Below, piece after piece: positions 43,803 through 48,851 of a stretch of 64,000 bases of DNA. Origin of the DNA: Alphaproteobacteria bacterium (lineage in GTDB: Bacteria; Pseudomonadota; Alphaproteobacteria; Bin65); NCBI GenBank assembly GCA_965220685.1, contig CBDCQR010000004.1:14542-78541 (forward strand), given 5' to 3'. Position numbers and translations under genes: made by a program. A model generated the notes under the pieces. The model searched no databases and was not told where the DNA came from. It was given only the letters and a program-made list of their open reading frames with translations. Every line of letters starts with the position of its first letter. Position 1 is the first letter of the stretch.

Positions 43803-43981
43803 CGATTGCCCTCCGGAATCGGGTTCGCCGACAGCCTATACCAACAGGCGGGCGGGTCAAAGCGGGGAAAGCCGGCCTTCCGGGCAGGCCCGTCATGCGT
43901 CGCCGCTGCCGGTTCACCGGCGGACGGCGGCGGGCTACATCCTCAACCGACCGACAAACCCTGGAGCAGGGGCGAAACACG

Positions 43982-45382
<1,401 letters not shown>

Positions 45383-45405: not shown

Positions 45406-45627
45406 ATGGCAGAGCATCCGGTCGAGAAACGCTCGGTCACGATCCGTGGCCACCAGACCAGCGTGTCGCTGGAGGCGCCGTTCTGGGAAGCGCTGAAAGA
45501 AATGGCGGCGGCCGAGGGCCGCTCGCTCGCCGGCCTGATCGCGGAAGTGGACGACGCGTCGGACGGCAATCTGTCGAGCGCCCTGCGCCTCCACGTTCTG
45601 GCGTGGCTGCGCGGGCGGCTTACTTGA
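45406..45627 (+). CDS. Ribbon-helix-helix protein (RHH_4)
   Basis: KRSVTIRGHQTSVSLEAPFWEALKEMA, NLSSALRLHVL; usual neighbour of fumC in Alphaproteobacteria. Confidence 0.88.
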   Translation: MAEHPVEKRSVTIRGHQTSVSLEAPFWEALKEMAAAEGRSLAGLIAEVDDASDGNLSSALRLHVLAWLRGRLT

Positions 45628-46090
45628 GCACGCCGGGCCAGTTCTTATCGGCCTTGCGGATGTAGCCGGGGATGTCCCGCTTCCAGGTCCGCTGCACGCT
45701 GCGGTCGTAGTTGAGGTAGAGCCTGCCGTCGACGACCGACCACTGGTCGACCTCGATCTTGACGGCGTAGCCCTGGGCGACGCCGTAGGCGCAATAGCCG
45801 CCGTATTGCGGCGCCCAGCGCTCCGGATCCTGCCGGAATTTGTCCCGGTTGGCGGCACTGGAGAAATACCAGGTCGCGCTTTTCCATACGTGGGTGAATT
45901 CTGGCTTGCCGGCGACCGGTTTGCCTTCGGTGAAATAGGCGACCGGGTCGTAGCCGCGGATCGCCATGCCGCCGGGCGCGAAGATTTCCGGCTTGGCGGC
46001 GGTCGCCGGCGCGACGGTGTAATGGCCCGCAAGGGCCGCGACTGGCACGGCGAGGGCTGTGGCGAGAAGGAAGCGGCGGGAGAGAGTCAT
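45620..46090 (-). CDS. Exported YHS-domain protein
   Basis: Signal peptide; AIRGYDPVAYF, PQYGGYCAYGVA, RLYLNY. Confidence 0.85.
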   Translation of the reverse strand: MTLSRRFLLATALAVPVAALAGHYTVAPATAAKPEIFAPGGMAIRGYDPVAYFTEGKPVAGKPEFTHVWKSATWYFSSAANRDKFRQDPERWAPQYGGYCAYGVAQGYAVKIEVDQWSVVDGRLYLNYDRSVQRTWKRDIPGYIRKADKNWPGVLK

Positions 46091-46333
46091 CGGGGCCTCC
46101 GCACGGCACGGGGTTCGGGATCGGTTTCCATGTGGGTATCGCGAACCGGGCTTTCAGCACAAATCGACATAACAGCGCTGTGAAACCGGCGTGCGCCACC
46201 CGCCGCGCGACGCGGAGTCAGGGTTGATCCGCCGCCGGCCGCCTCTAAAACACAAGCCGATTGTCGCTTTCTTCCGCCCGTCGCGGAGCACGAGGGAGAT
46301 ATCGGAGTGAGAGCCCGTCGCTGGGTCGGCGCC

Positions 46334-47302
46334 ATGAGGCCGGGCGAGACGCTGCCCGGCCGGAGCCGCGCCGACAAGAGGGGATCGGAGGTCGAAAGCA
46401 CGCCCGCCGCGGACGCGGCCGGGCTGCGCGGCCGGCTGCGCGCCGTGATCGACGGGCCGCATTTCCAATGGACGGTCACCGCGCTCATCACCGTCAACGC
46501 GCTCACCCTCGGCCTCGAGACGTCGAAGGTCGCCATGGCCCACGCCGGCGGGCTGATCGCCGGACTGGACCGGATCATCCTTGCCGTCTTCGTTCTGGAA
46601 ATCCTGCTCAAGATGGTCGCCTACGGGCCGGCCGGTTTCTTCCGGCGCGGCTGGAACGTCTTCGATTTCGTCATCGTCGGCATCGCGCTGGTGCCGAGCG
46701 CCGGAGCCTTCTCGGTCCTGCGGGCGCTACGCATCCTGCGGGTCCTGCGGCTGGTCTCGATCGTGCCGGCCATGCGCAAGGTCGTGCTCGCCCTGCTCGC
46801 CAGCATTCCCGGCGTCAGTTCGATCATGATGCTGATGGTGCTGGTCTTCTACATCTTCGCCGTGATCGCGACGCGGCTCTATGGCGAGACCTTCCCGCAA
46901 TGGTTCGGCACGGTCGGCGAGAGCATGTATTCGCTGTTCCAGATCATGACCCTGGAAAGCTGGTCCATGGGCATCGTGCGGCCGGTGATGGAAACCTTCC
47001 CGAACGCCTGGCTGGTTTTCGTGCCCTTCATCCTCGTCACCAGCTTCGCCGTGCTCAACCTGTTCATTGCGGTGATCGTCAACGCCATGCAGGAGCAGCA
47101 GGCCTACGATCTCGAAGAGGCCCGCGACACGCTCGAGCAGGACATCGCGGAGCAGACCATGAAGCTGACCGAGGAAGCGAAGGCGCGGACCGAGATACTC
47201 GGCCAGAAGGTCGACGCCCAGACCGAAGAGCTGACGGCGGAGATCGGCGCGCTCAAGGCCGAGATCCGCGAGCTCAAATCCCTGCTGGCGGAAAAACCGT
47301 GA
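46334..47302 (+). CDS. Bacterial voltage-gated sodium channel (BacNav, 6-TM), copy 1
   Basis: S4 LRALRILRVLRL, filter TLESWSMG, S6 NLFIAVIVNAM, long C-terminal coiled coil; start codon uncertain (46307 or 46334). Confidence 0.9.
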   Translation: MRPGETLPGRSRADKRGSEVESTPAADAAGLRGRLRAVIDGPHFQWTVTALITVNALTLGLETSKVAMAHAGGLIAGLDRIILAVFVLEILLKMVAYGPAGFFRRGWNVFDFVIVGIALVPSAGAFSVLRALRILRVLRLVSIVPAMRKVVLALLASIPGVSSIMMLMVLVFYIFAVIATRLYGETFPQWFGTVGESMYSLFQIMTLESWSMGIVRPVMETFPNAWLVFVPFILVTSFAVLNLFIAVIVNAMQEQQAYDLEEARDTLEQDIAEQTMKLTEEAKARTEILGQKVDAQTEELTAEIGALKAEIRELKSLLAEKP

Positions 47303-48144
47303 CCGCGCTGCCGGAGCCGACCTCGCCGCTCAACCGGGTGCGCCGCCGGGTCGGCGCCTTCATGGAGAGCCCGCGGATCACGCGCGCGATCACCGCGGTG
47401 ATCGTCTTCAACGCGATCACCCTCGGCCTTGAAACCTCGGCCGGCGTCATGGAGCGCGCCGGGCCGCTGCTCCTGTTCCTCGACGACGCCGTGCTGGCGA
47501 TCTTCGTGATCGAACTGCTCGCCAAGCTGTTCGCCTTCGGCTGGCGCTATTTCACCAACGGCTGGAACGTCTTCGATTTCATCATCGTCGGCATCGCGCT
47601 CGCGCCGGCGAGCGGCGACCTCACCGTCCTGCGTGCGCTGCGCATCCTGCGCGTGCTGCGGCTGGTCGCCATCGTGCCCTCGATGCGCAAGGTGGTGATG
47701 GCGCTCATGGCGGCGATCCCCGGCGTCTCCAGCGTCATCGCCCTGCTCGCGCTGGTCTACTACGTCTTCGCCGTCATGGTGACCAAGCTCTACGGCAAGG
47801 CCTTTCCCGACTGGTTCGGCACGGTCGGCGAGAGCATGTATTCGCTGTTCCAGATCATGACCCTGGAAAGCTGGTCCATGGGCATCGTGCGCCCGGTGAT
47901 GGAACAGTTCCCCAACGCCTGGATGGTCTTCGTGCCGTTCATCCTTTTGACCAGCTTCGCCGTCATCAACCTGTTCATCGCCGTGATCGTCAACGCCATG
48001 ACCGAGCAGAGCCAGGCCGAGTCCGCGGCGCTCAAGGAGGAGATGCACGCCGTCACCGAGGCCGAAGCCTCGGCCCTGATGCAGCGCATGGCGGCCCTGC
48101 AGCGCCAGATGGACGAGATCAAGGGAATGCTGGAGCGGCGTTAG
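47299..48144 (+). CDS. Bacterial voltage-gated sodium channel (BacNav, 6-TM), copy 2
   Basis: GTG start overlaps the upstream TGA (GTGA); S4 LRALRILRVLRL, filter TLESWSMG. Confidence 0.9.
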   Translation: MTALPEPTSPLNRVRRRVGAFMESPRITRAITAVIVFNAITLGLETSAGVMERAGPLLLFLDDAVLAIFVIELLAKLFAFGWRYFTNGWNVFDFIIVGIALAPASGDLTVLRALRILRVLRLVAIVPSMRKVVMALMAAIPGVSSVIALLALVYYVFAVMVTKLYGKAFPDWFGTVGESMYSLFQIMTLESWSMGIVRPVMEQFPNAWMVFVPFILLTSFAVINLFIAVIVNAMTEQSQAESAALKEEMHAVTEAEASALMQRMAALQRQMDEIKGMLERR

Positions 48145-48851
48145 CCGGCCGCTTCCAGCAGCAGCGCGGCGGTCTCCTCCGGGTGCGAGATCATCAGGTC
48201 GTGCGGGCCGTCGATGCGGCGGCGCAGCCAGCCGGCTTCTGCCGCCACGCGCTCATGGATCGCGTGGAAGGGCGACGGGTCGTTGGCGGTCGCCAGGATA
48301 TGCATCCTGCGGCCGACCGTTTCCCACGCGCCGGACAGCACAATGCGGTCGGTGAGGCAGCGCAGGGGATGCGGCGTTACCTTACGGGCCACCCAGGCCT
48401 GCTGCGCCGGATCGTCGAGCCAGGCACTCGCCGGCAGGGGCGGTACTTTCCAGCTATCGCCCCGTTCCGCGGCGGACCTCTCGAACGCCGCGACGCGCTC
48501 CGGCGGGGCCATGTCGTTGACGCACTGGCCGTCCGCCGGCACGAAGGCGTCGAGATAGACCAGCGCCCTGAGGCGCCCGGCCGCCCGGTCCGCCGCGCCG
48601 GTCACAACCATGCCGCCGTAGCTGTGGCCGCACAGCACGATTTCGTCCAGCTCTTCCCATTCGAGCAGGTTGGCGACGTCGAGGATATGGGTGTCGAGGC
48701 CGGTCTCGGGCGTCAGCAGATGCGCGCGGTCGGCGAGGCCGGTCAGCGTCGGCGCAAACACCCGATGGCCGGCCGATTGCAGCCGGCCTGCAACCTCCCG
48801 CCAGCACCAGCCGCCGTGCCACGCGCCATGCACCAGGACGAAGGTCGTCAT
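48141..48851 (-). CDS. Alpha/beta hydrolase (esterase, AB_hydrolase_6-like)
   Basis: LVHGAWHGGWCW, GHSYGG nucleophile elbow, GPHDLM. Confidence 0.9.
   Translation of the reverse strand: MTTFVLVHGAWHGGWCWREVAGRLQSAGHRVFAPTLTGLADRAHLLTPETGLDTHILDVANLLEWEELDEIVLCGHSYGGMVVTGAADRAAGRLRALVYLDAFVPADGQCVNDMAPPERVAAFERSAAERGDSWKVPPLPASAWLDDPAQQAWVARKVTPHPLRCLTDRIVLSGAWETVGRRMHILATANDPSPFHAIHERVAAEAGWLRRRIDGPHDLMISHPEETAALLLEAAG

Follow-up and report, generated by a model that had tools for sequence, protein, structure and literature searches.

The window, a stretch of 64,000 nucleotides from an alphaproteobacterial genome (G000), contains two adjacent genes that we read as an old, translationally coupled operon of bacterial voltage-gated sodium channels (BacNav), in which the pore segment has been repeatedly converted between the copies and each paralogue would be able to form a channel by itself. 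We assign this reading a probability of about 0.8 on the basis of the sequence comparisons described here. In the history that we propose, a tandem duplication would have given rise to the two-gene operon before this family of uncultured Alphaproteobacteria diverged into its genera, and purifying selection would act on both genes. Gene 2 would be translated by termination-reinitiation at a GTGA overlap, which would tie its output to that of gene 1. A segment of about 90 to 135 nt, which covers the pore helix and filter and extends to the start of P2, would have been repeatedly homogenised by short-tract conversion in either direction, most likely because the invariance of its amino acids leaves the two copies similar enough at the nucleotide level to recombine, with exchanges that are then silent. 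A search of the accessible literature turned up no description of a native BacNav operon with two genes.

Two channel genes and the age of their duplication

Gene 1 occupies positions 46307 to 47302 of the forward strand and encodes 331 residues, with a disordered N-terminal stretch of 33 residues and a long C-terminal helix. Gene 2 lies on the same strand at 47299 to 48144 and encodes 281 residues, the canonical length. An earlier note on this DNA had placed the pair at 46334 to 48144. Its end coordinate stands, but alignment of nine genomes puts the start of gene 1 at GTG 46307 (TTG in G001), where conservation begins, rather than at ATG 46334, which is unconserved (ATC in G005, GTC in G001). 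The gene 1 ribosome-binding site, GAGGGAGA at 46292 to 46299 (forward strand), corresponds to a GGGAG or AGGAG element located 7-8 nt before the GTG or TTG in nine genomes. Farther upstream, about 60 nt before the gene 1 start, lies a block of the form TTGATC-N16-TAAAAC (46224 to 46251, forward strand). It is conserved at this place across the genus, is retained in the single-copy species G007 and G009, and is a likely candidate for a promoter. A scan with consensus promoter and terminator models returned nothing useful and did not call this block.

The neighboring genes encode a YHS-domain protein (45623 to 46090, reverse strand, divergent from gene 1), an alpha/beta hydrolase (48144 to 48851, reverse strand, convergent with gene 2) and fumarase C (43895 to 45379, forward strand). 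No channel-related partner gene was found among the neighbors of the pair, and the operon therefore appears to consist of just the two channel genes. The G000 assembly (17 contigs, 94% complete) contains exactly two BacNav copies. The genus comprises uncultured MAGs labelled Rhodospirillaceae or Alphaproteobacteria (L032, L036, L038, L049), at least one of which is labelled as a Spongia sponge bin, and its habitat may be sponge-associated or marine.

Both paralogues are, by sequence and predicted structure, BacNav channels, in agreement with the description of two complete 6-TM channels with TLESWSMG filters in the earlier note. Each protein has a single 6-TM domain that matches PF00520 (Ion_trans; 3.7e-44 for gene 1 and 6.6e-40 for gene 2 in Pfam), and FQIMTLESWSMGIVRPVM is found in both genes. 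The closest solved structures for both proteins are NavMs (5HVX) and NavAb (3RVY), with E values of about 1e-79 to 1e-82. Gene 1 matches NavMs at 5.8e-82, and gene 2 matches it end to end at 9.7e-79, with residues 14-280 aligned to 4-271. In the printed alignment the pore and filter, LFQ(I/V)MTLESWSMGIVRPVM, are identical to those of NavMs in both genes, including the TLESWSM filter with its glutamate ring. The S4 motif RALRILRVLRLV, with four arginines at every third position, is also present in both, and R139, R142, R145 and R148 are invariant across 72 homologues.

AlphaFold2 models of the two proteins (mean pLDDT of 84 for gene 1 and 87 for gene 2) each contain S0, S1-S4, the S4-S5 linker, S5, P1, P2 and S6, which is the full BacNav layout. 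S6 runs on into the C-terminal helix as one continuous helix of 97 residues in gene 1 (232-328) and 76 in gene 2 (205-280; block pLDDT 75-96), and the last three heptads have a 3-4 hydrophobic spacing. The difference in length that the earlier note described for the C-terminal coiled coils is seen in these predicted helices. The length gap of 21-22 residues matches a 22-codon insertion in the gene 1 helix (47153 to 47218, forward strand) that is absent from gene 2. Among the gene-1 orthologues, that of G018 has this insertion and those of G013, G019 and G014 lack it. We rejected an origin of the insertion as an internal repeat, as its similarity to the next 22 codons is weak (6/22 amino acids, 30/66 nt).

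Overall, the two proteins are 60% identical, with 100% identity over the 26 codons of an exact repeat described below, 87% in S6, 74% in S3-S4 and 46% in S1-S2, and their C termini are nearly unrelated. They therefore have essentially the same pore (S5-P-S6) and S4, but differ in S1-S3, in the N terminus and in the length of the neck and coiled coil. From these features, the two proteins should differ in gating and have the same ion selectivity.

A search of relatives for tandem BacNav pairs found an adjacent pair in 9 of the 13 species sampled inside the genus, and also in G019 and G014, which represent two further genera of the family. Elsewhere such pairs are rare. Two adjacent copies occur at 5 of the best 80 BacNav loci in species-representative genomes, and all five belong to this family. 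A BacNav is present in 122 of the 401 genomes sampled from the class, and outside the family G350 is the only one of them with an adjacent pair. In a DNA tree from which the pore segment was excluded, the gene-1 sequences form one clade (87/81) and the gene-2 sequences another (99/94), and both clades extend across several genera. The pair is consequently best read as an old tandem duplication that predates the split of these genera, with the single-copy genomes as secondary losses: gene 2 is alone in G007, G008 and G009, and gene 1 is alone in G013 and G018. We looked for a remnant of the partner in G013 and G018 and found none. Unequal crossing-over as the source of the single-copy genes was rejected, since their sequence resembles gene 2 from its first codon onward and what remains of gene 1 reflects an internal deletion. 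Orthologue dN/dS values are about 0.07-0.25 in gene 1 and gene 2 alike, and both genes therefore appear to be maintained by selection.

The G350 pair (G350:C198, L111, 1411-3133, minus strand) is an independent one, found in a 1.6-Mb low-GC alphaproteobacterial genome that has a third copy on another contig. Its genes are 38% identical and 19 nt apart, and their filters differ, with a calcium-channel-like FQILTFDDWIEAI in the upstream gene and FQIMTLEGWAENI in the downstream gene. No such pair was found in close relatives of G350 among the examined genomes. For an asymmetric heteromeric filter, the G350 pair may be the stronger candidate.

Homotetramers or a mixed channel

One way to account for the pair, put forward in the earlier note, is that its two subunits co-assemble as a heterotetrameric BacNav, with gene conversion favored for the sake of pore symmetry. 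Close linkage with a conserved 4-nt overlap is a typical arrangement for genes whose subunits are produced in a fixed ratio, and the pair has persisted from a time before the genera separated. Identity is 85-100% over the pore domain and S4, whereas S1-S3 and the CTD have diverged. There is also an engineered precedent, as NaChBac subunits with different filters are reported to co-assemble on co-expression (PMC7764494).

An obligate heteromer, however, would need its partners to be retained together, and in G007-G009, G013 and G018 they are single. Because each paralogue survives alone in some species, mixed assembly cannot be obligatory. The cytoplasmic helix of BacNav forms a four-helix bundle, and the 97- and 76-residue helices of the AlphaFold2 models would present such a bundle with a mismatch of about 30 Å. 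Single-copy homologues have an invariant pore as well, which suggests that selection on the protein alone keeps pores compatible. Finally, the searchable literature on native heteromeric or tandem BacNavs yielded statements of homotetramers and engineered concatemers or co-expression, and no native heteromeric BacNav was found there.

Considering both sides, we lean against a physiologically relevant mixed channel while regarding it as a tentative possibility. The fuller picture, in which the operon would make a natural heterotetrameric BacNav with two kinds of voltage sensor, unequal necks and one symmetric, conversion-homogenised pore, strikes us as somewhat less probable still and on balance unlikely. 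Otherwise the operon would produce two homotetramers with the same selectivity and different gating. If the heterotetramer did prove real, it would be a living analogue of the intermediate in a path of "duplicate, co-assemble, then fuse" toward two- and four-domain channels.

Concerted evolution of the pore segment

The two genes share an exact 80-nt repeat. Positions 46901 to 46980 (forward strand), which encode the end of the S5-P loop, pore helix P1 and the selectivity filter, are identical to positions 47812 to 47891 (forward strand), as the earlier note had observed, and the match cannot be extended at either end. If the amino acids are taken as identical and codons follow the usage in the window, the chance that all 26 codons would be identical is about 2.6e-6, and elsewhere in the two genes identical residues share a codon 62-77% of the time. 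Codon bias was rejected as the cause of the identity because of this probability and the dS contrast given below. In sibling species, the two copies are identical at 76-78 of the 80 positions. The single-copy gene-2 orthologues of G007-G009 are already 79/80 identical to gene 1 of G000, and the exact run is therefore mostly inherited homogeneity that would predate the core group.

Gene conversion had been proposed for this segment from the G000 sequence, and the comparison across the genus supports it through quartet patterns, dS values and a tree of the segment itself. In the quartets, each informative site was scored as orthology (O) if it groups orthologues between species or as concerted (C) if it groups the two copies within a genome. 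For G000 and G001, positions 46881-47010 have O2/C8 versus O102/C18 over the remaining positions of the gene (p 3e-5 in a Fisher test). The corresponding counts are O2/C7 versus O148/C5 for G000 and G011 (p 5e-8) and O4/C9 versus O105/C16 for G011 and G001 (p 3e-5). Windows of 45 nt within 46934-47023 contain 0-1 orthology sites versus 3-7 concerted sites. Together with the site states, these patterns delimit a conversion-prone tract at 46889 to 47023 of gene 1 (forward strand), whose partner in gene 2 is 47800-47934. Within the tract, the number of concerted sites is close to that of changes in a single copy, a result that parallel mutations arising independently would not produce. A weaker concerted patch is seen at 46664-46753 (S3-S4) in the G001 quartets (C4-5 versus O6), and it may be a second conversion tract in the G001 lineage. 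The sequence data thus support a model in which gene conversion is confined to the pore segment and the rest of the gene follows orthology.

Trees and individual site states add to this picture. A tree of the pore segment alone joins gene 1 and gene 2 of G001 (96/71) and places gene 1 of G011 among the gene-2 sequences; an AU test on the 129-nt pore alignment did not reject monophyly of the paralogues (p 0.14). At 46994-46996, gene 1 of G011 has the gene-2 states (Thr to Gln), whereas gene 2 of G001 has the gene-1 states, and the direction of transfer therefore appears to differ between lineages. In G019, which belongs to another genus, no excess of this kind was found (same-codon fraction 0.79, dS 0.42). 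Gene 2 of G000 has the gene-1 state at 46921, 46998 and 47003-47004, and three of these states are shared with the single-copy gene-2 orthologues. The position of G000 gene 2 in the gene-2 tree has moderate support (93/94), and the case for a recent conversion event specific to G000 is equivocal.

Selection on the nucleotide sequence itself, through RNA structure or codon pacing of pore-helix insertion, could also keep two copies identical, and distant orthologues do have conserved synonymous sites in the segment (same-codon fraction of about 0.8 versus 0.35-0.75 elsewhere). We nevertheless consider it very unlikely and rejected it, because the segment shows no reduction in orthologue dS: between G000 and G011 or G001 it is 0.52-0.76, no lower than elsewhere in the gene (0.35-1.05). 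Paralogues within a genome, in contrast, have a segment dS of 0.14-0.22. Moreover, lineage-specific states, such as a rare ATT codon and the T/Q replacement, are common to both paralogues of one genome.

Gene conversion, then, remains our explanation for the segment, but it need not be an adaptation. Residues L210-M228 are invariant or nearly so in the 72 homologues, almost all of which come from single-copy genomes, and conversion is therefore not needed for pore compatibility. Most simply, conversion is a neutral by-product of the invariant pore sequence and not an adaptation for compatibility.

Probable coupled translation and relation to known systems

The TGA stop codon of gene 1 (47300-47302) overlaps the GTG start codon of gene 2 (47299-47301), giving a GTGA stop/start overlap at 47299 to 47302 (forward strand). 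An NTGA overlap is present in all nine genomes of the genus that have the pair, as GTGA in eight and as ATGA in G001, and short spacers replace it in G019 and G014. Upstream of gene 2 there is only a weak G-rich element.

The species that have lost gene 1 are especially informative here. In G007, G008 and G009, an in-frame internal deletion of about 306 codons has reduced gene 1 to a 25-codon ORF, located at about 1397-1474 in G007 (L017), 1388-1465 in G008 (L018) and 1418-1495 in G009 (L016). This relic retains the gene 1 SD, a TTG start, the N-terminal RxxRWxGA and the C-terminal ..QKP*, and the promoter-like block of gene 1 is also retained upstream of it. The TGA of the relic overlaps the start codon, ATG or GTG, of the channel gene that is left, and the ORF is intact and of equal length in all three species. 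Since these species retain only gene 2, that gene would function without gene 1. Most simply, gene 2 would rely on ribosomes arriving from an upstream ORF. Conservation of the NTGA overlap and the relic leader ORF together provide indirect but strong evidence for the translational coupling of gene 1 and gene 2 that the overlap in G000 had suggested, and the arrangement of the genes points to their co-transcription.

A programmed -1 frameshift at G_GAA_AAA, fusing the genes into a 12-TM two-domain channel, had also been suggested. The observations behind this idea are accurate for this genome, in which the gene 2 frame is open from 46261 to 48144, throughout gene 1, and an A-run lies in GGAAAAACC before the gene 1 stop. 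Neither feature is conserved, however, and we rejected the fusion as highly improbable. G_GAA_AAA is not an X_XXY_YYZ heptamer, and in relatives the site is replaced by GAC AAG TCG (G012, G006), GAC AAG CCG (G005), GAA CGG CCG (G011) or AAG AAA TCA (G001). The gene 2 frame is closed within gene 1 in G003, G005, G001 and G012, and G019 has a stop in that frame as well as a spacer. Long open alternative frames are a usual by-product of DNA so rich in G+C, which would account for the one seen here. The least probable alternative is that the 80-nt identity is a metagenome-assembly artefact. Although G000 is an incomplete, 17-contig assembly, a typical read is longer than 80 nt and the flanking sequence is unique. 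Eight other assemblies contain the same pair with 76-78/80 identity, and the arrangement as a whole is found in nine independent assemblies, of which G001, G005 and G011 are single-contig and G012 has six contigs.

Characterised BacNavs have all been treated as single-gene homotetramers. An ancient, coupled pair with identical pores but different sensors and necks would therefore provide an existing, natural test of whether the single-domain channels of prokaryotes mix, and of how asymmetric voltage sensors act on a symmetric pore. The pair is also a clear example from bacteria in which conversion is restricted to about 100 nt of otherwise diverged genes, and in its relatives a deleted gene 1 would survive as a leader ORF solely for the translation of its neighbor.

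Like the homotetrameric BacNavs NavMs (5HVX) and NavAb (3RVY), each of the proteins has a single 6-TM domain, four S4 arginines, an identical filter and an S6 that runs on into a C-terminal helix. Unlike them, two paralogues with 60% identity are encoded in one coupled operon, and the gene 1 protein is extended by 33 disordered residues at the N terminus and by 21-22 residues in its C-terminal helix. CatSper and Kv2/KvS heterotetramers, TPC and the four-domain Nav and Cav channels use distinct subunits or duplicated domains derived from a homotetrameric ancestor. The present pair likewise encodes distinct single-domain proteins, whose co-assembly would be hypothetical, but differs from these channels in that the filters are identical rather than asymmetric and each paralogue survives alone in some species.

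The expression and evolution of the pair also have known parallels. Overlapping stop/start genes in bacterial operons are generally translated by termination-reinitiation, and the 4-nt NTGA overlap with a weak G-rich element before gene 2 fits such operons. What sets this operon apart from usual coupled operons is that the need for coupling would be revealed by an evolutionary relic, the 25-codon leader ORF left by gene 1. Concerted evolution of bacterial duplicates by gene conversion is known from tufA and tufB in Salmonella. As in that case, paralogues within a genome are closer to each other than orthologues between species, which is consistent with an identity-dependent process. Here, however, the tract is only about 90-135 nt long, and outside it the two genes have diverged by 30-40%. 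The copies lie next to each other, and transfer appears to have occurred in both directions.
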